Below are positions 43,660 through 57,701 of a DNA stretch of 64,000 bases, piece by piece; position 1 is the first letter of the stretch; each line of letters opens with the position of its first letter. Both the position numbers and the translations under genes were made by a program. The DNA is from a virus (taxonomy: Duplodnaviria; Caudoviricetes): positions 160,001 to 224,000 of IMG/VR virus record IMGVR_UViG_3300031555_004710. One strand, given 5' to 3'. Below the pieces are notes generated by a model. It was not told where the DNA came from, ran no database searches, and worked only from the letters and a program-made list of their open reading frames with translations.

Positions 43660-43779
43660 TTAAGACTTATAGATTTATTCTGAATTATAAGAATTATTAA
43701 ACATTCCTTTATTTTATGCTAAAAAACAGCCTCTTAAAGATTAGAGATTATTAATTATATAGAAAGGAGCTGAGATAAT

Positions 43780-46713
43780 ATGTCTTACTTTACAGTAAGT
43801 TTAAGTGAGCTTCTCAGTAATTCTCATATATCAGCAATGGAAGCTAAATCGGAGCCAATTGAAATAATATCCAAAGTTGAAGATCCGGATGTATCAATGG
43901 CGATAGCTCTCATTACTGATAATATTATAATGAATTCAAATTTGAAGCCAGTTACAGATCCAATTGCTCACAGTGCTGGAGGAATTCCAACAGATGGTGG
44001 ATTATTTTCTGATATAATATTTGGCAGAGACCCAGAGTCTAGGCAGAGACAATTTGCGTATATTGATCTTCATGAAAAGTTCTTTCATCCATATGTATAC
44101 GAAATATTAAAAGCATTAATGCCAAAAAGATTTGAAAAATGTGCTCATGGAAGTGGAACGTCATGGAAAATTACAAACGATGGTGAATTAGTTGAAGTTA
44201 AAAAGGGAAATGCCGATTATAATGAAGATAATAGTGGTATAGCATGGCTTATAAAAAATTACCATAAATTAAAATTTTCTGAAACTGGTTCTATGATAAG
44301 AGGAGATAGAATTAAACTTCTAAAATCTCTTTCAGATAATGAAATATTTATTACTAAATGGATTGTAGTTCCGATTGTCTATAGAGATATTGATAAAAAT
44401 TCAAGTATTCATAAATTACCGGAACTAAATACTCATTATAATAAGATTATTCAATATGCTAATAGTCTTAAAGATGCGACATTTGATTTCTTTAATAATC
44501 AAATTAGATATAATCTACAGCAAGAATTGATAATAATTCGTAAATATGGTCAGAGTCTTATTGAGAAGAAACATGGGTTTTTCCATAAAGCAATTCTAGG
44601 TAAGTCAATAGATAGAGGTTCTCGTGACGTAATCTCTGTACCAACGATGACTAACTTGCAGAGACCTGAAGATAATCCTATTGATATTTTTCATAGTGGA
44701 ATTCCTCTTGCAAAATGTCTTATTCTTGGATATGATTTTGTTTTAAGATATTGCATCCAATTCTTCGCTGATAACTTTAGAAATGTAACAGAATATCCCG
44801 TGCATAAATTAGTTAACGGTGAGTATAAAATTGTAGGTTCTGTTAAAATAAAGAATCAAGTTGAAAAATTTTCTTCCGATTATATAAAGAAGAAAATTAA
44901 TAGATTCAAAAACTCATATGGAACTCGTTTTGAATATATTATGATTGAGACAGAAGACGGTCAGGAAATACCTATGCATTTATCTGGCCAGTTTGCACCT
45001 ATGTCTGAGACAAAACCTATGACATCTACTATTATAAATCGTCCTATGACTTGGACCGATTTGTTCTATTTAGCTGCAGAAAATACTTTAAGTGATAAGT
45101 ATGTATATATAACTCGTTTCCCAGTTACTTCTCATAGTAGTATTTTCCCATCTCAATGTAGAGTATTATCTACAATTAAAACTATCCCAGCTTATATAGA
45201 TGGTCAATTTTATAAGTACTATCCTTATATTGATTTAAATACTCCAAAGGATAGAATTTCTAGTGTATTCAATGATACAGTTACAATGTCAAATATGTAT
45301 CTTGCTGCACTTGGTGGAGACTATGATGGTGACCAAACTGCTCAGAAATTATGTTTCTCTATTGAAGCAAATGCCGAAGCAAAAGAGATTGCTGAATCTG
45401 TAAGAAACTTTGTTTCTCCTGAAGGAAAATTACTACGTACTCTTGGAAATGAAGCATATCTTACATTCTATAATATGACTAGAGATAAACCATCCGGAGG
45501 TATCTTGTCTAATGAACTTAAGAAAGAATTATTAGCTCTTAAATCTAAAGAGCTTACAATTAATAAAATTGCTGACCTTTTTGGTAAAACTACATCAATG
45601 AATAGTAAGGATAAAAAATCTGTATTTGATGTAAAGGAACCAAAATTTAATCCTCAAGCTAAATTTACTTTACAAGCTGGAGAGTATATTAATAAAGAAA
45701 CTATTACCACTACAGTCGGTATTTTCTTATTTAATAAACTTCTAATTGAAGGGTTACTTGAGGATGTGGTTCCTGGTGGTTATTATAATGAAATTTGTAA
45801 TAAAAAGAATTTCAGTAAATTGACTGATATGGTAGCATCTGCTATCATGAGTCAGAAAATTCAAATTAAGCCTACTTTAGTAGACTTTTTAAATGCAAAT
45901 GAATTTTGGGGATTGGGATTAGTAGCTATTTTTGGCACTTCTTATTCCATGGAAACTATAGTTCCTAATAAACAGTTAGAAGCTAAGAAAGCGGAGTTAC
46001 TTAAGAATGCTCCAGATAATGACTTGGCTACGTTATCTAAAATAGAGCAAGAATTGATTAAAGAAGCTGATAGATTAACTGAAGGCACTCCTGGTAAATT
46101 CTTATTTGATTCAGGTGCAAGAGGTTCTTTTAGTAATGACTTTAAGAATATGGCAATCAGTATTGGTCCTGTAGAAAATCCTATAACTGGAGAATTTGAC
46201 TTCATGTCTTCTAACTATATGCAAGGTATTAAGAAAGAAGATATTCCTGCTGCTGCTAATAGTATACTTAATGCTGAATATCCTAAAGCAATAGGTACTG
46301 CAAAAGGTGGTTACATGGGTAAAATCATGTATTCAGTATTCCAAACAATGGGAATTGATGAAGATGGAACTGATTGTGGTACTAATAATGGTCTAATGGT
46401 AACATTAACCAAAGATAATATAAGAGATTATTATGATCAATATATAATGGATGGAAAAAATCTTATTTTAATAGATGCTTATCTTCCAGTAAAATATATG
46501 AATCATCCCGTAATGCTAAGAAGCCCAATGTATTGTATTAGTGATAAATTGTGTAGTAAATGTGCAGGCAAGAGATTCTATAAGGTAGGAATTACCGACA
46601 TAGGTCTTACAGTACCAGCAATGACCGGTTCACTTATGAACGCACAATTGAAAAAAAGGCATAGCATGGAAGTTAAAATGCACTATATTGACGAGAATGA
46701 GATATTAAAATAG
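43780..46713 (+). CDS. virion RNA polymerase beta' subunit (unsplit)
   Basis: GLFSDIIFG, ILGKSIDRGSRDVI, catalytic GGDYDGDQ, SGARGS, GTAKGGYM, RSPMYC..CSKCAG, trigger-loop KKRH; late promoter 43725-36; SAME propeptide-like N-terminus. Confidence 0.9.
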   Translation: MSYFTVSLSELLSNSHISAMEAKSEPIEIISKVEDPDVSMAIALITDNIIMNSNLKPVTDPIAHSAGGIPTDGGLFSDIIFGRDPESRQRQFAYIDLHEKFFHPYVYEILKALMPKRFEKCAHGSGTSWKITNDGELVEVKKGNADYNEDNSGIAWLIKNYHKLKFSETGSMIRGDRIKLLKSLSDNEIFITKWIVVPIVYRDIDKNSSIHKLPELNTHYNKIIQYANSLKDATFDFFNNQIRYNLQQELIIIRKYGQSLIEKKHGFFHKAILGKSIDRGSRDVISVPTMTNLQRPEDNPIDIFHSGIPLAKCLILGYDFVLRYCIQFFADNFRNVTEYPVHKLVNGEYKIVGSVKIKNQVEKFSSDYIKKKINRFKNSYGTRFEYIMIETEDGQEIPMHLSGQFAPMSETKPMTSTIINRPMTWTDLFYLAAENTLSDKYVYITRFPVTSHSSIFPSQCRVLSTIKTIPAYIDGQFYKYYPYIDLNTPKDRISSVFNDTVTMSNMYLAALGGDYDGDQTAQKLCFSIEANAEAKEIAESVRNFVSPEGKLLRTLGNEAYLTFYNMTRDKPSGGILSNELKKELLALKSKELTINKIADLFGKTTSMNSKDKKSVFDVKEPKFNPQAKFTLQAGEYINKETITTTVGIFLFNKLLIEGLLEDVVPGGYYNEICNKKNFSKLTDMVASAIMSQKIQIKPTLVDFLNANEFWGLGLVAIFGTSYSMETIVPNKQLEAKKAELLKNAPDNDLATLSKIEQELIKEADRLTEGTPGKFLFDSGARGSFSNDFKNMAISIGPVENPITGEFDFMSSNYMQGIKKEDIPAAANSILNAEYPKAIGTAKGGYMGKIMYSVFQTMGIDEDGTDCGTNNGLMVTLTKDNIRDYYDQYIMDGKNLILIDAYLPVKYMNHPVMLRSPMYCISDKLCSKCAGKRFYKVGITDIGLTVPAMTGSLMNAQLKKRHSMEVKMHYIDENEILK

Positions 46714-46844
46714 TAAATTAATATAAAGATAGAACCCATATGGGTTCTATCTTTATATGTATAAGTATTTAATGAATCTGTTTTTATTTGTATATTATTT
46801 ATATGAGTAATTAAATATATTTATTTTACTAAGGAGGAAAAATA

Positions 46845-47144
46845 ATGATTAACATCAAGGATTTAGACAAAGCGGAGGTATTAAAAGCTCTATATGATCA
46901 TAGTCATATTCAGGGCTTAGGTTTTCTACAGGCAGTACCAGAAGGAACTGTTACAGTGGAGCATTGTAGGGAGTTATTGAAGAATAATGACTCAAAGTAT
47001 TTTGATTATTTATATGGTAAAGTCTTAAAAGTTCATTTAAGCGACGATGAATTCGATGAAACTCTATATGATAGAGATAATGGACCAGGTGCAGCATATG
47101 ATGCAATCCAGAGTATTATACGTAAAAAAGATGGAGGTCAGTAA
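46845..47144 (+). CDS. conserved hypothetical protein
   Basis: First gene of an early array (TATATTAT at 46791); DKAEVLKALY..YFDYL.G..YDRDNG.G. Confidence 0.7.
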   Translation: MINIKDLDKAEVLKALYDHSHIQGLGFLQAVPEGTVTVEHCRELLKNNDSKYFDYLYGKVLKVHLSDDEFDETLYDRDNGPGAAYDAIQSIIRKKDGGQ

Positions 47145-47147
47145 TAA

Positions 47148-47909
47148 ATGAAAACTATTAAGAATGATTATCGAGCTTATCTCGAATTATGGAGAGACTA
47201 TCCAGAGCTTTCTTTCATTAAAACATATAGTGCAGATGAACCATGTATATTTAAATACATTGATCAATTTGGTACACATATCATATTTGATGAATGCCCC
47301 ACAAAATCATTAATGGTGAAAGAATTTAAACTAGCTAATCCAGATATTGATGTAATTGAAATACTAAATATTTTTGTCCATCCAGAGCATCGATATAACG
47401 GTATTGGTTCTAGATTACTAAAAACAATTGCCACAATGTATGAAAACTATGCAATTCTAGTATTAGTTGGGGTAAGTGAAAAAGAATATCCAAAATTAGA
47501 TGAGAAAGATATTCCCAAAATTCTTAAAGATCTACTTCCATTTTATACTAAGAATAATTTTGTCAATGTAAATAATATTTATGGCAGTTATTCTAATTTT
47601 ATACCAATGCTATATACCGGAAATGAAATTGGTAAAAATATAGCAGATAAATTAGGACTTAATTCTATAGAGAAGAAATACGAAGTGGAATGTCCAGTAT
47701 GTAAAACATCTGAATTTCTAAAATATGATATGGGATCACATGCTGGTGGCGGTGATGATTGTATTGAATACCACCATGAAGATTATTTATGTGATAAATG
47801 TGGAGGTGAATTTACTGCAGTATACGAGATTAAAGATAATCAAGTATTGTATCTTAAAATTGATTATAAATCTAAAAGAACCGATAGAAGCGGATTTACC
47901 CGTGCATAA
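47148..47909 (+). CDS. GNAT acetyltransferase with C-terminal Zn ribbon
   Basis: IFVHPEHRYNGIGSRLL acetyl-CoA motif; FYTKNNF; CPVC..CDKC. Confidence 0.8.
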   Translation: MKTIKNDYRAYLELWRDYPELSFIKTYSADEPCIFKYIDQFGTHIIFDECPTKSLMVKEFKLANPDIDVIEILNIFVHPEHRYNGIGSRLLKTIATMYENYAILVLVGVSEKEYPKLDEKDIPKILKDLLPFYTKNNFVNVNNIYGSYSNFIPMLYTGNEIGKNIADKLGLNSIEKKYEVECPVCKTSEFLKYDMGSHAGGGDDCIEYHHEDYLCDKCGGEFTAVYEIKDNQVLYLKIDYKSKRTDRSGFTRA

Positions 47910-47926
47910 GATTGGAGGTATAAAAT

Positions 47927-48217
47927 ATGAATGAAAATAAAAAAGTTATAACTTTAGAAATAACAGGTGCACCTTCAGGAGATTACGAAAATAACTGTAT
48001 TGATGTATCACAAGAAGAATTTAAAAGACTGACAGGATTCGATCCTATAGAGTATGATGAATCGTATTTTTATAAGAATCTTTTTAGGTATTACGATGTA
48101 CTGATTCCTTATAAATATCTTCATAAATACATTGAGGAATCTGGTAAAGGATCTATTTTTAAATTGAAGATTACTTGTGAGATTGAAAAAGTCGGAGAAG
48201 CTGAAGAGAAAGATTAA
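47927..48217 (+). CDS. hypothetical protein
   Basis: GGAGGT SD. Confidence 0.7.
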   Translation: MNENKKVITLEITGAPSGDYENNCIDVSQEEFKRLTGFDPIEYDESYFYKNLFRYYDVLIPYKYLHKYIEESGKGSIFKLKITCEIEKVGEAEEKD

Positions 48218-48255
48218 TAAAACATTTATTTTATTGGGAAAGTGAGGACTGCGTT

Positions 48256-48492
48256 ATGAATTTAGAGATGATATGTTCCCTATTTATACTTCTTACAATA
48301 ATCGAAGTATTTATATTAACACCAGTTTGTGGTATGGATTTATCAATATTAAATCCAATAAGAAATTATAATGAATGGCGTAAACTAAATTGGTTTGGAA
48401 TAAGTGTTATTACTATTATTTTAAATATAGTATGTTTACCATATGCATTTTGTTATTGGGTATACAAATTATTTACAGTAGGCAGGAAATAA
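48256..48492 (+). CDS. small membrane protein
   Basis: Two hydrophobic helices. Confidence 0.7.
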   Translation: MNLEMICSLFILLTIIEVFILTPVCGMDLSILNPIRNYNEWRKLNWFGISVITIILNIVCLPYAFCYWVYKLFTVGRK

Positions 48493-48526
48493 AATACACA
48501 TTTTATCTTGAAAGTTGGTGATTTGA

Positions 48527-48808
48527 ATGTCTTTTGTAAACAAAGAGTTGTTAATACAGAGAGCATCTGCTTTAAATTCCAACACAGAAGTAGGAAGACG
48601 CTATTATGGTTCGATATATCATATGATAATCAATATGCCTATTGCTGATGTTGAAGATGTAAAGCATGGTGAGTGGATTGATGAAGATAGAAACGATGGT
48701 GAAATTTATTGTTCACTCTGTGGCGCCACCGAAAAAATTTCTGATAGTCAGTATAAAAGTCCACGATGTCCACTTTGTGGTGCTCATATGATTATTAAAA
48801 TTAAATAG
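48527..48808 (+). CDS. Zn-ribbon phage protein
   Basis: MPIADVEDVKHGEW..CSLCG..CPLCGA, typical of Clostridia-phage small proteins. Confidence 0.7.
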   Translation: MSFVNKELLIQRASALNSNTEVGRRYYGSIYHMIINMPIADVEDVKHGEWIDEDRNDGEIYCSLCGATEKISDSQYKSPRCPLCGAHMIIKIK

Positions 48809-48841
48809 AATACCCATTTTATGGTGAAAGTTGGTGATATT

Positions 48842-49057
48842 ATGATTGATATAAAAAAGCTTTTAAGTAGTCCTCATATAACAGTCAGACGATATTGGAT
48901 ATTTACATTTCATAATAAATGTGGCTATGGGCATTGTAGACATGAAACTTGTAAGAATTGTTGTCATACCAACTATCATATTCATGTTAGAAATAGTTCT
49001 CACGAATATCGATTGCCTAATTGGATGCAACGGATTTTGAGAAAAATATTGAATTGA
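48842..49057 (+). CDS. Cys/His-rich hypothetical protein
   Basis: ATG after GTTGGTGA; C..HC..TC..CC. Confidence 0.55.
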   Translation: MIDIKKLLSSPHITVRRYWIFTFHNKCGYGHCRHETCKNCCHTNYHIHVRNSSHEYRLPNWMQRILRKILN

Positions 49058-49095
49058 CACAATAAATAAAAATACATATGTTATGAAGAGAGGAT

Positions 49096-49452
49096 ATGAT
49101 TAAAATGTCTTATATAGATAATCGTTCCGATATTGATAAAGAAATAGAATCGTGCTACTCGCAGATTGAAGAGCTTAGAAATAGAATAAAGATTCTTGAA
49201 GCAGAGAAAGAGAAAGAGAGTAGAATAGATAATCTCGCCAAGCAGATATCCACAAATGTAGTAAACGATTCAGTGAAGGATAGTTATCCTAAATATAGTA
49301 ACAATAGTGGATTATGTGATAGCGCTGGAAATCCATCTGTTGGAGAAGATATAGATTATCTTTTTAATGAAGTTGAAAATGGTAGAATACCATTAAATCA
49401 TCTGGATAACACTCTAGACTTAGGTAATGGAATTTTGATTGTACCAAGATAA
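49096..49452 (+). CDS. hypothetical coiled-coil protein
   Basis: GAGAGGA SD. Confidence 0.7.
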   Translation: MIKMSYIDNRSDIDKEIESCYSQIEELRNRIKILEAEKEKESRIDNLAKQISTNVVNDSVKDSYPKYSNNSGLCDSAGNPSVGEDIDYLFNEVENGRIPLNHLDNTLDLGNGILIVPR

Positions 49453-49488
49453 ATAAAATACATATTATAATAAGAACGAGGTAGTTAA

Positions 49489-49773
49489 ATGAGTAACACT
49501 ATGAAGGAATTTAAAGAACTGATATCAAATATTAATAAACTAAGAGAAAAAGAAAAATTAATGATAGAATCTTTTGAAAAATCAACTTGTGAATTATCTG
49601 AAATTTTTCATTACATCATAAACTGTGAATTAGATGGAAGGCATCATTGTATGCTTTCCATCGATATATGTTTACCACTATATGCTAAATCATTAGAAAA
49701 TATGGGATTTGAAGTACGTGAAAATAGAAATTGTTTTGATGCGTTATGTGGATATGATATTTACTGGGGATAG
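49489..49773 (+). CDS. hypothetical protein
   Basis: GAGGT SD. Confidence 0.7.
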   Translation: MSNTMKEFKELISNINKLREKEKLMIESFEKSTCELSEIFHYIINCELDGRHHCMLSIDICLPLYAKSLENMGFEVRENRNCFDALCGYDIYWG

Positions 49774-49791
49774 ATAAGGATGGTGTTATAA

Positions 49792-49995
49792 TTGAGAGAA
49801 TTTTTAAAGAAGTTATTTTGCAGACATCAATATGTAAAAATTTCATGGATGGCAGAATTTGATGCTCAGCAAAATATTATGTATTCAGTTAGGATGTACA
49901 AATGTAAAAAATGTAATAAAATCATACATGTAGATGGTAGAAGAGATCCGTTTGATAATGTAATATCTCATAAATTTTCCGTGGAGGAGGAATAG
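49792..49995 (+). CDS. small Zn-binding protein
   Basis: KLFCRH..CKKC, similar to the N-terminus of 12543..13064. Confidence 0.6.
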   Translation: MREFLKKLFCRHQYVKISWMAEFDAQQNIMYSVRMYKCKKCNKIIHVDGRRDPFDNVISHKFSVEEE

Positions 49996-49997
49996 AA

Positions 49998-50795
49998 ATG
50001 AAGAAGCGATTGCATATAAATAATTATTGGAAAGGTAAGGATAACTCTAAAGTACCTTATTGTAAAAGTACTGCACTTGGAATAGATACTCCTGAATGTA
50101 GTGAAGAATGTTGTAAATTTGATAAGTGTACTAGTGATAGAAAAAGAAATTATATTATTAATAAATTTACACAAGGAGAAAATAAAGTTACCCATACAGA
50201 TTCTACGAATAATTCAGGTATTAGTAGTCTTACTATCAATGATAAAGTATATACTTATAAAGAACTAAGTGAAATTCTCAAAAAACATGAAGTTGAGGAA
50301 GATAAAAAATATACTAAATGTGATAGATGTGGAAATAAATATCTAGAAAATACTATGCACGATATGGTAGATAATTATTTGAATGAAGAATTGGAACATA
50401 GACCAGGTACAGCTTGGGGGTATTCGATTCGACCTATTATAACAGGATTCCAAATAAATTCTACATGTGGAAATGGTAAAAAGGTTAAATTGTGTGATAA
50501 CTGTTTATTTGAATTGATAGATTGGTTAGAAAACAGAGGAAAAGTTGAAGCATATGCTAATGTATCAAATATATCAAATGAGTGGATAAGTATCATAGAA
50601 AGATTACCTAATAGAGAAGAGTATCTAACATTCCTCGATGATGGTTTAAGTTGTTATAAACGATTAAATATAGCATACAAAACTGACATAATAGAATACG
50701 ATATAGGATATTACGATGGTTATAAATGGTTTACTGATCTACACAAAATACAAAATGTTATTGCATGGAAGCCATTTACAAAGTATGAACCATAA
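49998..50795 (+). CDS. Cys-rich protein with C-terminal DUF551-like domain
   Basis: WISIIERLP...YDG.KW...VIAWKP. Confidence 0.65.
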   Translation: MKKRLHINNYWKGKDNSKVPYCKSTALGIDTPECSEECCKFDKCTSDRKRNYIINKFTQGENKVTHTDSTNNSGISSLTINDKVYTYKELSEILKKHEVEEDKKYTKCDRCGNKYLENTMHDMVDNYLNEELEHRPGTAWGYSIRPIITGFQINSTCGNGKKVKLCDNCLFELIDWLENRGKVEAYANVSNISNEWISIIERLPNREEYLTFLDDGLSCYKRLNIAYKTDIIEYDIGYYDGYKWFTDLHKIQNVIAWKPFTKYEP

Positions 50796-50818
50796 TAAAT
50801 ATTTGATAAAATAATGAG

Positions 50819-51019
50819 GTGAATATTATGATGAGTAGTAAACCTTGCGAAGGCTGTTGTCATGATGGGTGCTGTGGTTACTTCAGTGAATTAAATAAAT
50901 GTGAGACTGAAGATGAAGCATTTCTTGAATTTTGTGCTGGTTGTGCTTGCGGTGATGGAGCAGAATGTAACAGAGACCAAGGATGTGATAACTACGAAAC
51001 GGAACCAATTATGGGTTAA
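50819..51019 (+). CDS. small Cys-rich protein
   Basis: Numerous Cys in 66 aa; GAGGTG SD. Confidence 0.6.
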   Translation: MNIMMSSKPCEGCCHDGCCGYFSELNKCETEDEAFLEFCAGCACGDGAECNRDQGCDNYETEPIMG

Positions 51020-51049
51020 ATAAAACATTTATTCTATGGAGGTATTAGT

Positions 51050-51241
51050 ATGAAAATAACTAAAGAAATATGGAAAGAATTATTGAAAATTTTAAATAAA
51101 CATAAAATTCAGTATACCTCCCATATTACAGAGCTTAAAGGAGATATGGAATATTCAGACAAGACTATTCATAATAAACATATTCAAATCAATTTAGTTA
51201 TCCCAGATTATTTTGAGGAAGGAAGTGATCATAATGGATAA
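51050..51241 (+). CDS. hypothetical protein
   Basis: GGAGGT SD. Confidence 0.65.
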   Translation: MKITKEIWKELLKILNKHKIQYTSHITELKGDMEYSDKTIHNKHIQINLVIPDYFEEGSDHNG

Positions 51242-51452
51242 AGCTAAAATGTATGTGCAAGCAAAACGCCCAGAAATGGAAGCAGAGATGCACGTATTAT
51301 CTCGTCCAATAATTAAAAATGGAAGTATATTATCAATTGGAGGGAATATTGCTGCTACTAAAGTAAAGGTAGATCAACACTTTAATTGGTTCCAAAAGAA
51401 AATGTGGAAATTATTATTAGGTATTACTATTGAGGATTACCGCGAAGAATAG
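51234..51452 (+). CDS. hypothetical protein
   Basis: ATG after GGAAG; NWFQKKMWKLLLG motif. Confidence 0.6.
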   Translation: MDKAKMYVQAKRPEMEAEMHVLSRPIIKNGSILSIGGNIAATKVKVDQHFNWFQKKMWKLLLGITIEDYREE

Positions 51453-51474
51453 TATTTATAAGGAGATAATTATT

Positions 51475-51801
51475 ATGTCAGATAAAGAAAAATTATTGAA
51501 GTCCATTGAATCAATTGATGGAAGTTTTGAAGATATTATTATTGCTCATCTCAATACATATTCTTCAGACTTTACACCTTCTAGATTAAATAATCTTATA
51601 TCGACAATTTCATCTATTTTAAATGAGAAATTAAGAGCTAATGATTGTGCTATACATAATTCAATAGAATACGCTACATATGTAAAAATGTATCTTGAAG
51701 GTAAATTATATGCTACAAAAGAAGCCGCAGAGAAATCTGTTGATATTCAAATAGGTCATTTAGATAATATTCTAAGACTATGCGAAGAGGCATTAAATTA
51801 A
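51475..51801 (+). CDS. hypothetical protein
   Basis: AAGGAG SD before MSDKEK. Confidence 0.65.
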   Translation: MSDKEKLLKSIESIDGSFEDIIIAHLNTYSSDFTPSRLNNLISTISSILNEKLRANDCAIHNSIEYATYVKMYLEGKLYATKEAAEKSVDIQIGHLDNILRLCEEALN

Positions 51802-51848
51802 AAAGTAAATAAGATATGAAGAATATTCTTCATATCTTATTTTTTTAT

Positions 51849-51925
51849 TGGTCCGAGTAGCAGGATTTGAACCTGCGGCATCCTGCTCCCAAAGCAGGCG
51901 CGCTACCTAACTGCGCTATACCCGG
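51849..51925 (-). tRNA. tRNA-Pro(UGG)
   Basis: Cloverleaf; anticodon arm CCTGC-TTTGGGA-GCAGG; TTCAAAT T-loop; encoded CCA. Confidence 0.95.
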
Positions 51926-51931
51926 AATTAA

Positions 51932-52007
51932 TGGCTGGGATGGTTGGATTCGAACCAACGAAATGCAGGAGTCAAAGTCCTGTGCCTTACCGCTTGGCTA
52001 CATCCCA
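51932..52007 (-). tRNA. tRNA-Gln(UUG)
   Basis: Cloverleaf; CAGGA-CTTTGAC-TCCTG; TTCGAAT; encoded CCA; late promoter at 52014-25 (-). Confidence 0.95.
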
Positions 52008-52084
52008 ATAATTTATAAAAATGTTTATAATATTATATGAAATTAAATAAGGGAAGGATATTAATATCCTTCCCTACTAAAGTT

Positions 52085-53317
52085 TTAATATATTTCTTTG
52101 ATATCATCGATTATTTCGATATCATTTGTATTTGCATGTAATACAATTACTCTAACTTGATAAGTTCTTAAGTCTAAAAATGGACATGCTACCGTATTAT
52201 TATCCATCTCATAATAGTTACGATCCATTCCCATATTATTGATATTGATAACTCTAGTTTTTTCTAAAGACCCAAGGAATAGTCTATTAGGATATTCTTC
52301 AAATTTCATATATCGTTTTACATTTATAAAATCATTAAGAATTCCAAAATCATATTTAACTTCAGTAGTATTATCTTCTATATAGCTAGTATGAGATTGT
52401 ATAATCTGAGATATCGCTTCTTCTTCTTTGGCATCCAACGATGGATCATCCCAAGATTCTGCAGCAATATCAATGTTAGTAGAACTTGCCATTGTGTTTA
52501 TCATTGATTCAAAAGTTGCAAAGTTCTTCGTTTTTGTAAAATCTCCAGCTTCTTCAAAGAAATTCATATATCTATCAAAAGCTACATTATCTTGTAATCC
52601 GTAATAATTTACTATAGCCAAGAAATAATATCTTTGACACTCTGGTGATACACTATCATTTCTTTTAGTAAGATTATCCAAATTAATAAGATTAACTTTA
52701 TCTATATTATATTTATCATCGAATAATACTGTAGTAAGTGATGTATTCATCATAATTTCTGCAAGATTCTTTAAAAGTAAATTAATTAAAGTTTCTTTTA
52801 TATTGACTCCAATATACTGCTTAGCACTTCCTACAATATCTGCATGTAGTGTTTCTTCAGCAGATTCTAAATCAGGTCTACGAACCATTTGATCATATGG
52901 TACAATAGGAGATGAATTAGTCATAAAGCTTTCAAGATCACCTTTAGCTTTTTGCTCATCTCTAATTTTATTAAGATAATTAGAAGCAAATTGTCTTAAT
53001 GCTTTTTTAATATCTTTATCATATTCTGAAAATGCGTTATCAATCGATATGATAAAATCTTTCATGATATTTCTCTTTAAATCAGAATATGATACATTAC
53101 TTTTAATTTTTCTAATCAAATATGATACGTGTACCATTAATTGCATATATTTATTATATTTTGCAATTTCATCGCACTCTCTTTCATAGACTCCAGTTTG
53201 CATACACATAAATGGGCCATATGCAAACACAAAATTATCATCAACTGATTTAAGTGAGCCTTCTGAATATTCTCTATATTGATCTAATTTATTATCGATA
53301 AATGTATTAATATCCAT
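52085..53317 (-). CDS. hypothetical protein, probably virion
   Basis: 410 aa; AACA-N7-TA upstream; SAEE/AAE motifs. Confidence 0.6.
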   Translation of the reverse strand: MDINTFIDNKLDQYREYSEGSLKSVDDNFVFAYGPFMCMQTGVYERECDEIAKYNKYMQLMVHVSYLIRKIKSNVSYSDLKRNIMKDFIISIDNAFSEYDKDIKKALRQFASNYLNKIRDEQKAKGDLESFMTNSSPIVPYDQMVRRPDLESAEETLHADIVGSAKQYIGVNIKETLINLLLKNLAEIMMNTSLTTVLFDDKYNIDKVNLINLDNLTKRNDSVSPECQRYYFLAIVNYYGLQDNVAFDRYMNFFEEAGDFTKTKNFATFESMINTMASSTNIDIAAESWDDPSLDAKEEEAISQIIQSHTSYIEDNTTEVKYDFGILNDFINVKRYMKFEEYPNRLFLGSLEKTRVININNMGMDRNYYEMDNNTVACPFLDLRTYQVRVIVLHANTNDIEIIDDIKEIY

Positions 53318-53463
53318 ATTTTAACAACACCCTTTCAAAAATATTTGGTCTTAAAGTCTTTATGAGATTTGTTTTTATGGTATAAATTACATTAAATTAG
53401 AAAGATTTTTTAAGTACAATTTAATAAATATTAGAAAAATAAATGGGAAAGAGGTTGTTTAAA

Positions 53464-53937
53464 ATGTATTACTCATATGCAGATATCTTAGAAAGCTATA
53501 TAATCGAACCTGCAGAAGAAAGTAAGTTAGATGGAATAAAAAATGCTTATAATACTATAAAAAATTCCAAAGGTGGAAAGGCTATAGTAACTGCAGCGAA
53601 AGGTATTGGAGCAGCATATACAATCTATAGTACTGTAAAAGGTATTGGTGGTATTGTAAAGAATAACATCTCATCTGCTAAAGGTGAAGAAATAGAAAGA
53701 TTTATAAAAAATAAATTACTTATAAAATATAGACTTATTGGAAAGCTAAAGATAATTTCTGACTATTCACCAGACAATAGTATTATTTGTGCATTATCGT
53801 CACAATCTAATATTAGTGAGGATGATAATGAAAATCTTCATTTATTATTATCGGAACTAAAGCAAAATTATAAATTTTTAAAATATCGAATAGGTTCTGA
53901 TGAAGAACATGAAGTTCTTGTTAAAATATTTTATTAA
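53464..53937 (+). CDS. putative virion head protein with propeptide
   Basis: N-terminus SYADILESYIIEPAEE, like 5790..6458. Confidence 0.5.
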   Translation: MYYSYADILESYIIEPAEESKLDGIKNAYNTIKNSKGGKAIVTAAKGIGAAYTIYSTVKGIGGIVKNNISSAKGEEIERFIKNKLLIKYRLIGKLKIISDYSPDNSIICALSSQSNISEDDNENLHLLLSELKQNYKFLKYRIGSDEEHEVLVKIFY

Positions 53938-54052
53938 AAGATAATATATAGAGACATCAGTGTCTCTATATATTATATCCGACATTTTTAAATGATTAAA
54001 CCATCTTATAATAGTTTCTAAAACTTTTTATAAAGTAAAGTAGGTGATAAAA

Positions 54053-55159
54053 ATGGAATTAAAAGATCTTGTATTGAAAAATGTTCTATATTATATGCAA
54101 ACATTTGTTATTACTGCAGGGGAGAAAACATTTGAAGTTCCTAGATCAATGATAGCAAATATAGATATTGCAAAAGAATATGATACAATGCTTTATCCGA
54201 TGTGGTATGTTTGTGTAAATGTGCCAAATTGGTTTTATACAGAAATGACAAAAAATCCTAATAATATATCAGTGTCAATGAATCTACAGTATAGATTAGG
54301 TTCAACTAATGAAAAGTTAATATCTAGTACAGGTTCATTAACTACAGAAATATCTGGAAATTTCAAAGCAATTATTCCATATACAACTCAAGTAGGAGAT
54401 CATTCACTTCAGAAAAAAATTGAAAAAGATGATGGTTCCTATAATAATAACTATAGTTACAATGAGTACGCATTCGTTGAACTATGTTTATACAATAGTG
54501 CAGCATATGCTGCATCATTCAATACATTGAATGCAGTAATATCATCATCAACTCTTACAGATGTGGTAACATACTGCTTTAATAAGTGTGGGATAAATAA
54601 TATCCTTATAAGTAAAGCGGATAATAATACAACTTATTCAGAATTTAAGATATTACCTCAAAGTGGGATGTTAAATATTCTTAGAATTGTCGAAAATTAT
54701 AAATTCCATGATAGTGGCTCAACTTTATTCTTTGACTTAACTGAATCATATTTAGTTACAAATAAAATGGGATGTCATGCTTGGAAAAATAACGAATATA
54801 AGACTACTCACATATTATCATTATCGGAATTTAGTGAAGCATTTGGTAGTGGTGACGGTATTAGCATTGATAATAAATATAAATGTAATATAATTGTGGT
54901 AAATAAATATGCTTATAATTCTCAAGATATCGGTACATCTCCAGTTGTTAAGAATACAGGAGAGACAGAATTATTTTCAGTTACAACTAAAAATGCTTTG
55001 ATAAGTACGCTTACACCTAATAAAGAATTTATAGTAAATGTAGACTCACCAGATAATAGAAATTATAATGGTAAGTATAGATTAATGGCAATGTCAGTAA
55101 ATATGGTTCCAAATGGAGAATTTTTAACTCCGACATTTACATTAACTTTAAGACGATAA
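54053..55159 (+). CDS. baseplate hub-like structural protein
   Basis: Beta-rich; C-terminal LTPNKEF..NYNGKYRL..TLTLR. Confidence 0.4.
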   Translation: MELKDLVLKNVLYYMQTFVITAGEKTFEVPRSMIANIDIAKEYDTMLYPMWYVCVNVPNWFYTEMTKNPNNISVSMNLQYRLGSTNEKLISSTGSLTTEISGNFKAIIPYTTQVGDHSLQKKIEKDDGSYNNNYSYNEYAFVELCLYNSAAYAASFNTLNAVISSSTLTDVVTYCFNKCGINNILISKADNNTTYSEFKILPQSGMLNILRIVENYKFHDSGSTLFFDLTESYLVTNKMGCHAWKNNEYKTTHILSLSEFSEAFGSGDGISIDNKYKCNIIVVNKYAYNSQDIGTSPVVKNTGETELFSVTTKNALISTLTPNKEFIVNVDSPDNRNYNGKYRLMAMSVNMVPNGEFLTPTFTLTLRR

Positions 55160-55212
55160 AAATTAAATAGATCATACTCAAATAGAGTATGATCTATTAT
55201 ATTATTTAAAAA

Positions 55213-56559
55213 TTAGCCTTCATAATCAGATGCTTCCGGAGGCATTTTTACGAAAAATTTATAACCAGATGAGAAACTCTTTTTAGCTAGAGTTGCTTGT
55301 CTAAGTTGCTCAAGAGAATCTTTCATTGCATCAATCTTACCAGACCATTTACGTACTAATGACTTATCTGGTGATATTGCTTCCTCAAAAGTATTAATTC
55401 TATCTAAAAGTTCATAAATCAAATCAAGTACAAAAATTCTATCGTGATGATTTGTAATCTTATCAACTTCTACAGCAATAGCATCAACTTCATACTGTGA
55501 AGGCATCTCTGCTTTTATTTTCTTACGACGATTAAATACCGCTTCGAGAGCAATTGATTCTGAATTCATTAATGATTGAAGTTGCTTATCAAATCTAGCA
55601 GATTCTAAAGCGTCTACAATTGGTTCATATTTCTTCATTACGTCAGGATCAGATAAAAGTTCTAAAGAATTTTCTACCACATATCCGGTATATCTTTCTC
55701 TCATCTTAAATCCTATTTTATCAAGCAGGATAATTGTGATTGCTTTTACATAATTAGATTTAGTTCTAATAGCTTTGTAATAAAGCTCATCTTTAAGTTT
55801 TTCTTTACGAAGCATTACATCAGAAATATTTTTATTGCACCACTGCATTGATGTATCGAGTTCTGCTTGCATTTGATTAGTGTTAGAATTTATTGAACCG
55901 AAATGTCTAATTATCTTATTAAAAGCTTCAACTAAGTAATCACCATAACCAAGTTCAACAACTGATTTATCTGCAATAAGTTCAACGTTTACCTGATTTT
56001 TATCATTTACCCAGCGTCTCTGCATGCAAGCAAGTGATAAAGGAATCATGTAAATGTGATACATTAATTTCTGGGTTGCTCTATCAGAAATAGTCATTCT
56101 AACTTTAGCTTCACGATATGCTCTATAGAATCCTTCTATTGGGCTATCTGAATATATCACATGCCCAATTTCATGAAGGGTAAGAGCTACTAATTCTTTA
56201 GGAGTAAAGTTTATAGTATTTCTATTAAAGAGAACTCCATCTAATTCTAAAAACCAAGAATCAATAGTTCTCCATCTTTTTGATAACTCATTAAATTTAA
56301 CAAGTTTATCAGATTCTTCATTAACAAGATCTTTACAGAATTCATCAAGTTCTTCAATTTTAGGGAACACTCTCATTCCAAAGAACTTTTCTGTCATTTT
56401 TTGGTTTGTAATCTGTACAGAAAAACTTTTATTTCTACCATCAAATGGCATTGCATTGAGGGCAGTTTCGATATCTTTACATAATTGTGATTCAGATGTC
56501 GATTTCATTATATATCTACTATATGCATTTTCTAATGAAAGTAAAATTCTTTCAATCAC
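55213..56559 (-). CDS. virion protein with HEXXH zincin-like motif
   Basis: ELVALTLHEIGH ... ELIAD..V.ELGYG; GTG start after GAGGTG; AACA-N6-TA at 56604-15 (-). Confidence 0.6.
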   Translation of the reverse strand: MIERILLSLENAYSRYIMKSTSESQLCKDIETALNAMPFDGRNKSFSVQITNQKMTEKFFGMRVFPKIEELDEFCKDLVNEESDKLVKFNELSKRWRTIDSWFLELDGVLFNRNTINFTPKELVALTLHEIGHVIYSDSPIEGFYRAYREAKVRMTISDRATQKLMYHIYMIPLSLACMQRRWVNDKNQVNVELIADKSVVELGYGDYLVEAFNKIIRHFGSINSNTNQMQAELDTSMQWCNKNISDVMLRKEKLKDELYYKAIRTKSNYVKAITIILLDKIGFKMRERYTGYVVENSLELLSDPDVMKKYEPIVDALESARFDKQLQSLMNSESIALEAVFNRRKKIKAEMPSQYEVDAIAVEVDKITNHHDRIFVLDLIYELLDRINTFEEAISPDKSLVRKWSGKIDAMKDSLEQLRQATLAKKSFSSGYKFFVKMPPEASDYEG

Positions 56560-56677
56560 AGATAAACACCTCTTTCTATAAAAAATATTTGTCATTATAC
56601 ATTTAAGGCAATGTTTTGAAACCCTATAATTTAAGATAAAAAATAAAAGCAAGTCAATGACTTGCTTTTAATGCGTA

Positions 56678-56917
56678 TTAATTTAAATTACGGATTTTAG
56701 AGAAATCCACTTGAACTGAATGGATTAACTCTTTTCCGCAACTTAGACAATTTACTTTTTCATAATAAAAGTCGACTGTTGGATTTTCTTCTATCGACTT
56801 TTTTAAATCTTTCTGATTATAGGAAAATCTAACACCACAGTCACATGTTCGTAAGAATATAATTTCATTATTAATATTTTTAAGTTCTGTAACTTTTTCA
56901 TGTAGCATATAAATCAC
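56678..56917 (-). CDS. Zn-ribbon hypothetical protein
   Basis: CDCG..CLSCG. Confidence 0.65.
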   Translation of the reverse strand: MIYMLHEKVTELKNINNEIIFLRTCDCGVRFSYNQKDLKKSIEENPTVDFYYEKVNCLSCGKELIHSVQVDFSKIRNLN

Positions 56918-56931
56918 CTCATCAATTTAAA

Positions 56932-57264
56932 TTATTGTCCATTTTTATATTCATCGGTTATTACAAATGCATCACCATTTCCAACATTGATTTTCTCTAT
57001 CTTCGTTGTACGAGCATAATCTTCACTAGTCTTACATAACATATTGCTGACTATATATGGGACATAATCAATATCACTAGCAAATGCTATGACAATTTTA
57101 TCTTCTTTAACTGCACCATTATCAAATTCTACATGACATTTATAGATATCTAAATTAGGAACCTGCTTTATTCTAGGTAAAGAATCTATATCTGTTACAT
57201 GTAGATGTGCTACTCCATGCTCACCAAATAAATCATATACATCTTTAGTATTTAAATAAGCCAT
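56932..57264 (-). CDS. hypothetical protein
   Basis: GGAGGT SD. Confidence 0.7.
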   Translation of the reverse strand: MAYLNTKDVYDLFGEHGVAHLHVTDIDSLPRIKQVPNLDIYKCHVEFDNGAVKEDKIVIAFASDIDYVPYIVSNMLCKTSEDYARTTKIEKINVGNGDAFVITDEYKNGQ

Positions 57265-57281
57265 AATAAATTATACCTCCA

Positions 57282-57611
57282 CTATCTATGAGTTATGACA
57301 TGTGTAATATCGTTTGCTATATTTTTAATACATGATAACCATCTAGGAGCATTTGTAATAGATGAACCTCCACGAGATATTTTAGCAATCTCTGGGGCAT
57401 GATTTACAAATACTTTCTCAACTTCAAAACTTAATGATTCAGGTATATTTATAACGATATCGTTATTTATAGGATTAACAAATCCTTTTACTCCACCAGT
57501 TGGTTCTTTAGAAAATACCTCGTTAAATGCTTTATTTACTTTCGGGTTTTTCATTGCCTGTAGAAACTTACGAAGTTCCTGAAATTCTCTGTTGCTCATT
57601 TGAATAGTCAT
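57282..57611 (-). CDS. hypothetical protein
   Basis: GGAGG SD. Confidence 0.7.
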   Translation of the reverse strand: MTIQMSNREFQELRKFLQAMKNPKVNKAFNEVFSKEPTGGVKGFVNPINNDIVINIPESLSFEVEKVFVNHAPEIAKISRGGSSITNAPRWLSCIKNIANDITHVITHR

Positions 57612-57701
57612 AATACTATTTAGCCTCCTATTTTTATTAATATTTTAACACAAAGTTAATTCAAATCATAAAATTTAATCATTTGAAAGGTGGTAATTTA
57701 A

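Follow-up and report, generated by a model that had tools for sequence, protein, structure and literature searches.

What are the six 18-bp inverted repeats that stand between small genes in an early operon of an uncultured phage? The DNA analyzed here (the window) is a 64,000-nt stretch of a virus record (IMG/VR IMGVR_UViG_3300031555_004710, positions 160,001 to 224,000), in which the repeats, each made of two short inverted arms around a 6-bp spacer, recur at gene junctions. They may be chance palindromes in AT-rich DNA, binding sites or RNA signals of the operon, or joints at which single genes are exchanged among phages. The first-pass annotation favored single-gene cassettes shuffled by site-specific recombination (Xer-dif, pdif or integron-like), with repressor operators or RNA-processing sites as alternatives.

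Phage genome and early operon

The window phage is an uncultured AR9-like jumbo phage with two multisubunit RNA polymerases (phiKZ/AR9-type subunits); its genome (G000) is 236,671 bp and 94% complete. Both promoter classes of AR9 (consensus from Lavysh et al., 2017, PMC5312081) are used nearly letter for letter: the early promoter RTATTAT-6N-G gave 44 intergenic matches in G000 (8.5 expected) and the late promoter AACA-6N-TA gave 62 (8.8 expected). The left anchor of the variable region is a conserved, unsplit RNA polymerase beta' gene of 977 aa (43780..46713, + strand), which matched PHROG RNA polymerase beta families at 1e-80 and 7e-56 and is ∼33-35% identical to the N-terminal part of beta' in AR9, PBS1, and BpSp. 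Behind it lies an inverted repeat (46721..46758, +), a self-complementary BLAST match that we read as a probable terminator hairpin. An AR9-type early promoter (46792..46805, +) follows at the head of the array; it should drive all of it, being the last canonical promoter before the two-way terminator hairpin at 51807..51842 (16-bp stem and T-run), which closes the operon. All genes in this frame are on the + strand. No canonical early or late promoter was found inside the array, and a search for the late pattern from 43725 to 57647 gave no match, which leaves the cassettes promoterless and co-oriented.

The first genes behind the promoter encode a 99-aa protein and a 253-aa GNAT acetyltransferase with a zinc ribbon (46845..47909, +; Pfam Acetyltransf_7 and Acetyltransf_1), with homologs in the relatives L008 and G002; they frame the array on the left. 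The final genes of the operon (63, about 72, and about 108 aa; 51050..51801, +) end with a gene of about 108 aa that L008 and G002 retain as well and that frames the array on the right. Between these frames lie, all on the + strand, cassette genes of 96 aa (47927..48217), 78 aa (hydrophobic; 48256..48492), 93 aa (C-terminal zinc ribbon, phrog_22543; 48527..48808), 71 aa (Cys/His-rich; 48842..49057, although gene callers place the start at 48821, inside a junction site) and 118 aa (coiled-coil N-terminus; 49096..49452). They are followed by three genes of 94, 67, and 265 aa (49489..50795), which belong to PHROG families of unknown function and have short junctions that lack the motif; a further motif-free junction (50796-50827) precedes a Cys-rich cassette gene of 63 aa (50828..51019). 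The array proteins show no mutual similarity and are not paralogs; an origin of the repeat as a by-product of tandem gene duplication is therefore ruled out. We concluded that these unrelated small genes make up a single early operon, which varies between its GNAT gene and the gene that precedes the terminator.

Junction motif

All six 18-mers reported by the first-pass annotation are present on the + strand: C1 (48217..48234, spacer CATTTA), C2 (48489..48506, TACACA), C3 (48805..48822, TACCCA), C4 (49067..49084, TACATA; the weakest copy), C5 (49453..49470, TACATA, right arm TTATAA), and C6 (51020..51037, CATTTA, right arm TTCTAT). The upstream stop codon falls within the left arm of C2 and, as TAG, of C3. 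The placement described earlier was accurate: every site is at the upstream stop codon or within 10 nt of it, 12-21 nt before the next start, and directly ahead of a ribosome-binding site, and five of the six do occupy consecutive junctions. The sequence noted to follow two copies is a 13-mer, GAAAGTTGGTGAT, found at 48510-48522 after C2 and at 48826-48838 after C3; it is an extended ribosome-binding site. One correction concerns the spacer, which is conserved as well as the arms and falls into two classes, CATTTA and TACAYA, giving the consensus ATAAAA-YAYWYA-TTTTAT.

The first-pass annotation had called for comparison with an AT-matched background; here the sites were scored against the whole genome. 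When a matrix was built from five sites, the sixth ranked 1-11 among 473,308 genome positions, with 49067 ranking 87; with the matrix of all six, the sites scored 27.8-35.9 bits and nothing else in the 236,671-bp genome exceeded 15 bits. The degenerate pattern with up to two mismatches had nine matches in the window against 2.3 expected, seven of them, representing five sites, within the 2.8 kb of the array. The six sites are a true family, more than chance. The motif occurs at 6 of the 11 array junctions, and its absence from other junctions, first remarked for the window, holds for the whole genome.

In G000 all copies of the motif lie within a single 2.8-kb array and in G002 within one of 3.6 kb, with no dispersal over either genome; its conservation extends over G000, G002, and G003. 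Across the arrays of G000 and its relatives there are ∼25 distinct motif-bearing junctions, with non-homologous genes on either side. The whole 18-mer, spacer included, is conserved with the same two spacer classes in G000 and G002 despite very divergent polymerases, which could reflect recognition by a sequence-specific protein. The motif is absent from the close relative L008, in which the whole cassette segment is missing. The cultured AR9-like phages AR9, BpSp, LPJP1, DC4, and JD-Fnp1 showed no enrichment of the palindrome, and the published AR9 transcript maps are therefore not usable for its function. A motif scan of IMG/VR returned mostly chance matches, yet it led to G002, G003, and unrelated palindrome-rich phages; close relatives sought there by protein, and by motif plus ribosome-binding site, were not found. 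In metagenome contigs the scan hit at least 120 loci, and among the matches listed none has a cassette of the array. At comparable junctions, one of the unrelated phages (G001, 122.8 kb) carries 41 longer palindromes, which share the inner arms of the motif and have random spacers; these would form stems of 10-14 bp followed by a T-run.

Strain comparison and cassette exchange

The first-pass annotation asked whether gene gain and loss in related phages break at the motif, and the breakpoints of gain, loss, replacement, and reordering do fall at the sites. One case is the joint shared by L032, L038, and L039, which are assemblies from two or three samples. They match the window from 48487 to 49079 at 99.8% and then from 49449 onward at ∼96%, with an 18-base overlap of the two matches, and they lack the 118-aa gene. 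Their joint is a chimera: the left part, with its five A's, comes from C4 and the right arm from C5. These near-identical strains are without exactly one gene between two sites, and a chimeric site remains in its place.

Replacement is seen at C2, where the homology of L032 and L038 begins at 48487: another, unrelated gene stands in the place of the 78-aa gene and reaches the first base of the site. L040, L041, and L043 diverge from the window right after the last base of C1 (48234); a non-coding insert in L040 gave no matches in tRNA and Rfam searches. In L042 and L044, 98% identity is limited to window positions 47911-48247 around the 96-aa gene, with other neighbors on both sides. In L037 the 93-aa gene is 92% identical over 48488 to 48813, a span that reaches from one site to the next, and the 78-aa gene stands behind the 71-aa gene; gene order is permuted in L037 and likewise in G002. 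Neighboring cassettes differ in divergence, and orthologous cassettes variously keep, change, or lose the motif. The 71-aa gene, for example, has 79% nucleotide identity in G002, where the upstream site is of a different type, and the 118-aa gene has N-terminal homologs in G002 and G003. Ten of the 12 ends of recent homology blocks lie inside a site or within 2 nt of one. Since the junctions are only 34-38 nt long and the motif makes up half of each, any intergenic breakpoint falls near a motif, and position alone is weak evidence. The argument is carried by the chimeric site and by the motif shared in both partners, which bear out the proposal that the sites are joints of single-gene cassettes.

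G002 and the L040 strain share an 80-aa gene at 97% identity, which runs from the left motif to the last base of the right motif apart from 2 bp lost in the right arm. For the polymerase of G002 the identity is just 38-39%, and for the other shared cassettes it is 72-79%. Judged from these sequence identities, at least one cassette has evidently moved recently between distantly related phages.

Mechanism of exchange

The best fit is recombination within short linker repeats, of the kind known from PeSLs of T4-type phages, and in our judgment this is the probable mode of exchange. The six sites would be copies of a portable gene-to-gene joint that links promoterless single-gene cassettes in one early operon, each joint comprising a stop codon (usually inside the left arm), the palindrome, and a ribosome-binding site. 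Here and in co-occurring relatives, the same 18-40 bp separate genes that are unrelated, and a crossover or template switch is therefore possible there. The general recombination or replication machinery of the phage would cross over or switch template within the joint, and whole genes would be deleted, inserted, replaced, reordered, or laterally exchanged with reading frames and translation signals intact. Short homology presumably drives the exchange without a dedicated enzyme, and the everyday role of the joint may be intercistronic, in translation termination and re-initiation or in the binding of some factor. Two features of the C4/C5 chimera are counterpoints, however. Its identical run is 11 nt, which is short for classical homologous recombination, and the crossover lies within 7 nt (the 6-bp spacer plus one right-arm base), where a tyrosine recombinase would also cut. 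No phage recombination gene was identified; the sole RecA match was weak (13 bits).

A tyrosine recombinase, either the host Xer pair or an unrecognized phage enzyme, could bind the arms, exchange strands in the 6-bp spacer, and move cassettes as circles like those of integrons and pdif modules. The 7-nt crossover between parents with identical spacers fits this mechanism, as do the inverted 6-8 bp arms flanking a 6-bp spacer, the complete sites that bound the transferred cassette, the two spacer classes common to G000 and G002, and the integron-like row of promoterless, co-oriented cassettes behind the single promoter at 46792. Xer and pdif sites, however, are 28 bp long with two ∼11-bp arms and a 6-8 bp center, and attC sites are imperfect palindromes of 57-141 bp with R''-L''/L'-R' boxes that fold as single strands. 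The junction sites measure 18 bp, and their folding does not exceed that of shuffled sequences. Their conserved arm is just 6-8 bp across ∼25 copies against the 11 bp of Xer arms and does not extend to such outer ends: beyond it, the left flanks are coding ends and the right flanks are varied ribosome-binding sequences. Natural variants with spacers of 5, 8, and 15 bp, with a truncated right arm, or with a composite of both spacer classes argue against a core site of fixed geometry, which should not tolerate them. Different spacer classes also flank the same cassette, so that excision would need non-identical spacers to recombine. The search for a tyrosine recombinase that the first-pass annotation had asked for came back empty: Pfam searches of the 94%-complete G000 at E<=1 gave no match to Phage_integrase, Resolvase, or Y1_Tnp, no tyrosine, serine, or HUH recombinase was found, and no integrase was found in G002. 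Without a Phage_integrase match, the intI and attI of an integron are not in evidence. The locus thus resembles integrons (IntI, attC) and the pdif modules of Acinetobacter plasmids (XerC/D) in its promoterless single-gene co-oriented cassettes behind one promoter, its imperfect inverted repeats, and the presence of a cassette in unrelated backbones, and it differs in having no integrase, 18-bp sites, a variable spacer, and mixed spacer classes per cassette. On these grounds the Xer-dif, pdif, or integron mechanism first proposed is improbable. A related idea is a long shot: the 18-mer would serve as the core of a still unrecognized system, dedicated to cassette exchange in rumen or gut jumbo phages, in which an enzyme outside the known recombinase families or a hijacked host Xer pair excises and inserts single early genes as circles. 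If it were true, lytic giant phages would have an integron-like shared gene pool, and the 41 longer palindromes of G001 would represent this system on the scale of a whole genome.

The palindrome could instead be mainly a candidate binding site for a dimeric phage or host protein, with recombination incidental; in the DNA it would shut off the early operon as a roadblock of the stoperator type, or in the mRNA it would be a translational operator immediately before each ribosome-binding site. Conserved arms, dyad symmetry, the constant place between stop codon and ribosome-binding site, retention in G000, G002, and G003, and the unrelated 122.8-kb phage with the same inner arms at similar junctions all speak for a bound protein. 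So do the SAS/ESAS of Cluster K mycobacteriophages (Pope et al., 2011, PMC3203893) and the Cluster A stoperators, which are likewise short inverted-repeat motifs by starts or stops (SAS/ESAS immediately 5' of starts, as here), next to varied gene families, and kept among relatives. They differ in being genome-wide and GC-rich and in not being reported as recombination joints, whereas the sites described here are confined to the array; stoperators are moreover asymmetric 13-mers bound by a known repressor of temperate phages. Against the proposal, PHROG and Pfam searches of the array proteins found no recombinase, HTH, or other DNA-binding domain, orthologous cassettes do not hold on to the motif consistently, only about half of the array junctions carry it, and it is missing from L008 and the cultured AR9-like phages; we regard it as unlikely. 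That the sites are promoters, either of a third class or as weak late-promoter variants, and yield one transcript per cassette would be suggested by the reading of both site classes as AAYA-7N-TA, one base longer than the late consensus, by the altered spacing of some AR9 late promoters (PMC5312081), and by the late-matrix score of C1, which is marginal (5.2, training minimum 4.1). With matrices trained on 36 early and 64 late promoters of G000, however, the other five sites scored -1.5 to -6.8 on the late matrix (training median 13) and all six scored -5 to -18 on the early one (training median 24); intergenic DNA of the whole genome shows no excess of the 7-nt spacing (24 vs. 17 expected), sigma-70-like sites are not enriched either (30 vs. 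38), and the motif keeps to one array and is absent from cultured AR9-like phages. Canonical promoter identity was rejected by these scores and counts, and the wider promoter proposal is very unlikely. The T7 early transcript has RNase III sites between its cistrons, and the intercistronic position of the repeats recalls them; hairpins could serve as RNase processing sites or weak terminators that divide the early transcript into single-gene messages, and the related G001 palindromes, with their longer stems and T-run, point the same way. The six junctions nevertheless folded like shuffled sequence (MFE -0.8 to -5.8 kcal/mol, z -0.64 to +0.95), the stems have just 6-9 A-U pairs, and the loop sequence is conserved, although a signal that works by structure alone would not require this. 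Hairpin, terminator, and RNase III identities were rejected on this folding, which lends no support to the RNA-processing alternative of the first-pass annotation; such a role is extremely unlikely.

Discussion

Recombination at short linkers has a precedent in the promoter-early stem-loop (PeSL) cassettes of the hyperplastic regions of T4-type phages (Arbiol et al., 2010, PMC2839356; Comeau et al., 2014, PMC4122927). A PeSL joins a strong sigma-70-type early promoter to a terminator stem-loop, a single chimeric element is found where an ORFan is missing (PMC2839356), and exchange has been attributed to recombination between the repeated modules without a dedicated recombinase (PMC2839356, PMC4122927). 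In both systems a short conserved intergenic module surrounds small, functionally uncharacterized genes in an early region that varies (here six copies in the window and ∼25 in the arrays of relatives), the breakpoints of indels, replacements, and swaps between close relatives lie inside the module, and a chimeric module marks the missing gene, as at C4/C5. The module itself is different: it is an 18-bp AT palindrome with a ribosome-binding site inside a polycistronic operon, and the promoter matrices, the lack of sigma-70 enrichment, and the folding gave neither a recognizable promoter nor a stable hairpin. The carrier is an AR9-like jumbo phage with its own polymerases, with the motif in a single array; the junction sites fit neither promoter class of AR9, and AR9 itself lacks the palindrome. 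By analogy, the exchange is likely to be the same kind of process as at T4-type PeSLs, in an unrelated lineage and with a far smaller linker.

How phages trade small accessory genes, many of them for host takeover or anti-defense, without damage to their genomes is a long-standing question, and the linker model of modular evolution has few clean examples, the T4-type PeSLs foremost. The natural evidence here is unusually clear: a chimeric site, uneven divergence of cassettes, and a cassette 97% identical across phages whose polymerases are ∼39% identical. The sites could become landing pads for the engineering of jumbo phages. For the phages themselves, the array suggests that very short conserved translation joints may suffice to maintain a shared pool of cassettes among co-infecting phages.

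Phage identity and operon structure

The IMG/VR record from which the window derives (G000; the window is its bases 160001-224000) is 236,671 bp long, 94% complete and has a GC content of ∼29%. Its large ORFs include matches to the families of split beta and beta' polymerases from phiKZ/AR9-type phages, and the beta' polymerase gene (977 aa; 43780-46713, + strand) shows 33-35% identity to that of the Bacillus phages AR9, PBS1, and BpSp. The early and late promoters of AR9 have been published (PMC5312081), and the same two motifs recur upstream of genes genome-wide here: the early-type RTATTAT-6N-G, in this phage extended to aT[AG]TATTATT-4N-TGA, has 44 intergenic copies vs 8.5 expected, and the late-type [AT]AACA-6N-TA has 62 vs 8.8 expected. 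From the polymerase matches and the AR9-matching promoter motifs we infer that G000 is an uncultured AR9-like jumbo phage; its own predicted virion and non-virion polymerases should transcribe its genes. The two record ends (G000:99-122 and G000:236610-236633, outside the window) carry identical sequence including an early-promoter match, which may point to terminal redundancy, or else to an assembly that is circularly permuted.

A canonical early promoter (46792-46805, + strand) is found 3' of the hairpin that trails the polymerase gene, and a two-way terminator with a 16-bp stem (51807-51842, both directions) closes the operon. A pattern scan detected no further early or late promoter match between the two. 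Because there is one early promoter, one terminator and no promoter match between them, we read the array as a single early polycistronic operon of ∼14 small genes. A terminator-like hairpin with a 12-bp stem (49633-49662) is present within the 94-aa gene at 49489-49773. Directly past the operon terminator are tRNA-Pro (tgg) and tRNA-Gln (ttg) genes (51849-52007, minus strand), which explain the many weak matches to phages.

The neighbourhood of the polymerase gene differs among relatives. A strain 98.6% identical across this gene (L017:3802-4963) has an ORF of >362 aa with an HNH-type motif right after the beta' gene, in the place of the window's 99-aa gene and with its own early-promoter-like sequence; this ORF, at the variable region's edge, probably encodes a free-standing homing endonuclease. 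In two ∼80% identical relatives (L012:10001-14320 and L014:10001-14341) the beta' gene, unsplit in the window, is divided into parts of 542-544 and 413-414 aa with a minus-strand ORF between them, which in L012 gives a weak GIY-YIG match.

A conserved 18-bp site family at gene junctions

The first-pass annotation had reported six 18-bp inverted-repeat sites (C1-C6) at 48217, 48489, 48805, 49067, 49453, and 51020 on the + strand. All six were located, each at a junction of small + strand genes, where it lies between the upstream stop codon and the ribosome-binding site of the gene that follows, and five of them indeed occupy consecutive junctions. The 13-mer noted after two of the sites also proved to be the same in both, and it is an extended Shine-Dalgarno sequence. 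Checked for enrichment over background by leave-one-out, genome-wide matrix scores and loose-pattern clustering, the family is statistically real. With leave-one-out matrices the held-out site ranked 1-11 among 473,308 positions, except for 49067, the weakest, at rank 87; in the matrix scan the six sites scored 27.8-35.9 bits and the rest of the genome never exceeded 15 bits; and seven of the nine loose-pattern matches in the window, corresponding to five sites, fall within the 2.8 kb of the array. The spacer is conserved too, in two classes (CATTTA and TACAYA), hence the consensus ATAAAA-YAYWYA-TTTTAT.

Stops in all three frames are present at 4/6 joints. For the gene after C3, public gene calls begin at ATG 48821 within the right arm of the site (78 aa); ATG 48842 (71 aa), immediately past the extended ribosome-binding site, is the likelier start. 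The proteins flanking the sites show no similarity when compared with each other, and domain searches of the array proteins found no recombinase or helix-turn-helix domain. Several array proteins are small and zinc-ribbon or Cys-rich, and the gene framing the array on the left encodes a GNAT acetyltransferase.

Gain, loss and replacement of cassettes

A graded series of relatives was gathered from beta' protein homologues, and ∼30 contigs of near-identical strains were obtained by exact-sequence look-ups of cassette proteins. Most of these ∼30 contigs are colinear with the window and several are not. In a relative with 86% beta' identity (L008), the whole ∼47910-51430 segment is missing, and a plain stop/Shine-Dalgarno joint connects the GNAT gene directly to a homologue of the operon's final gene. 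L032, L038, and L039 match window positions 48487-49079 at 99.8% and 49449 onward at ∼96%, the two matches overlapping by 18 bases, and the 118-aa gene between C4 and C5 is absent. Their joint is chimeric, with a left part from C4 (five A) and a right arm from C5, which places the crossover in the stretch common to both sites, spacer included. The gene that L032 and L038 carry left of C2 is a different, unrelated one, and identity begins two bases before C2.

L040, L041, and L043 are 97-98% identical to the window through the last base of C1, after which a non-coding insert of ∼130 nt leads to a site that matches the consensus perfectly, followed by other genes. The insert (L040:2170-2290 in L040) has tRNA-like ends, was not recognised in L040 by ARAGORN or Rfam, and may be a non-coding cassette. 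The 96-aa gene and its joints are found in L042 and L044 between other genes, one of them a methyltransferase gene. Gene order is changed in L037, where the 78-aa gene comes after the 71-aa gene and not before the 93-aa gene; identities of 89, 92, and 75% for the three cassettes in common indicate separate histories. The motif is found at nearly every junction of the variant arrays, and its left arm often holds the stop codon of unrelated upstream genes, several of which end Lys-stop.

An IMG/VR motif scan led to G002, a phage of 209.8 kb from a sample that also yielded one copy of the G000 phage; its beta' is only 38-39% identical. The exact palindrome is present five times in G002, all in one 3.6-kb array whose spacers fall into the two classes seen in the window. 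Homologues of the window's GNAT gene and last operon gene frame this array. Several window cassettes are also present in G002 at 72-79% identity, in a different order. For one 80-aa gene, G002 and the L040 strain share 97% identity, which sets in at the left motif and runs no further than the final base of the right one; this is a lone cassette, recently transferred between backbones that differ greatly. G003, a third record, likewise shares the motif and cassettes. In these relatives the points at which genes have been gained, lost, replaced or reordered coincide with the motif, in support of the single-gene cassettes suggested by the first-pass annotation.

Similar palindromes occur in unrelated phages. 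G001 (122.8 kb; L055/L057, loci L069-L074) contains 41 exact copies of ATAAAA-6N-TTTTAT vs 0 for the reversed control, each within a longer palindrome with arms of ∼14 bp (roughly AAAACCAC + core + GTGGTTTT) and random 6-nt spacers. The copies lie mostly 12-30 nt ahead of start codons (e.g., L057:2307-6087), some with the upstream stop in the left arm. In G005 (68.8 kb), ATAAAA-6N-TTTTAT occurs 16 times. Such elements may serve as operators, as recombination sites or as terminator-like hairpins. Genes for tyrosine recombinases are present in G001 as well as in G005, and may represent ordinary integrases.

Role of the joints and mechanism of exchange

With matrices built from the early and late promoters of this genome, the sites scored far under true promoters, C1 alone (which contains AACA) being marginal, and sigma-70-type promoters were not enriched. 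Folding of junction RNA was no better than that of shuffled sequence, so the sites were rejected as RNA hairpins and the RNA-processing alternative of the first-pass annotation was not supported. No palindrome excess was found in cultured AR9-like phages; the palindrome is therefore not a general signal of the AR9-type transcription machinery. The fixed place, built-in stop codons and adjacent extended ribosome-binding site suggest that in its everyday role the joint is an intercistronic adaptor. The dyad symmetry and conserved sequence of the linker would also be compatible with binding of a further factor, for which the mycobacteriophage SAS/ESAS and stoperator motifs are precedents (PMC3203893), a reading that we consider unlikely.

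Of 12 ends of recent-homology blocks, ten fall inside a site or no more than 2 nt from one. Breakpoint position by itself is weak evidence for exchange at the motif, since half of each 34-38 nt spacer consists of the motif and breakpoints outside intergenic DNA would not survive selection anyway. Stronger support comes from the chimeric site, from the motif as the sole sequence common to recombining partners, and from the mosaic divergence of neighbouring cassettes. The inverted arms around a 6-bp spacer had been likened to a tyrosine-recombinase system, and exchange by such a site-specific enzyme seems improbable: no integrase, resolvase or Y1 transposase was detected in the 94% complete G000, nor an integrase in G002; the arms are conserved over only 6-8 bp; and spacers of 5, 8, and 15 bp exist. 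Moreover, sites of different spacer class flank one mobile cassette, one site in L037 is a composite of both classes, and the right arm of the 97%-identical cassette has a 2-bp loss that persists in three assemblies. The probable process, in our view, is recombination at short linkers that recur between genes, or template switching there; a crossover or template switch within a linker would exchange whole cassettes.

Shuffling of this kind at promoter-early stem-loop linkers (PeSLs) is known for T4-type phages. There, an ORFan between two PeSLs in one phage corresponds to a single chimeric PeSL in a relative (PMC2839356), and the exchange has been attributed to recombination between repeated regulatory modules (PMC2839356; PMC4122927). 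The pattern of exchange at the joints of the array is the same as that described in T4-type phages. New here are the jumbo-phage lineage, a minimal linker that has no promoter and lies within a single operon, and direct evidence that distantly related jumbo phages have exchanged cassettes.
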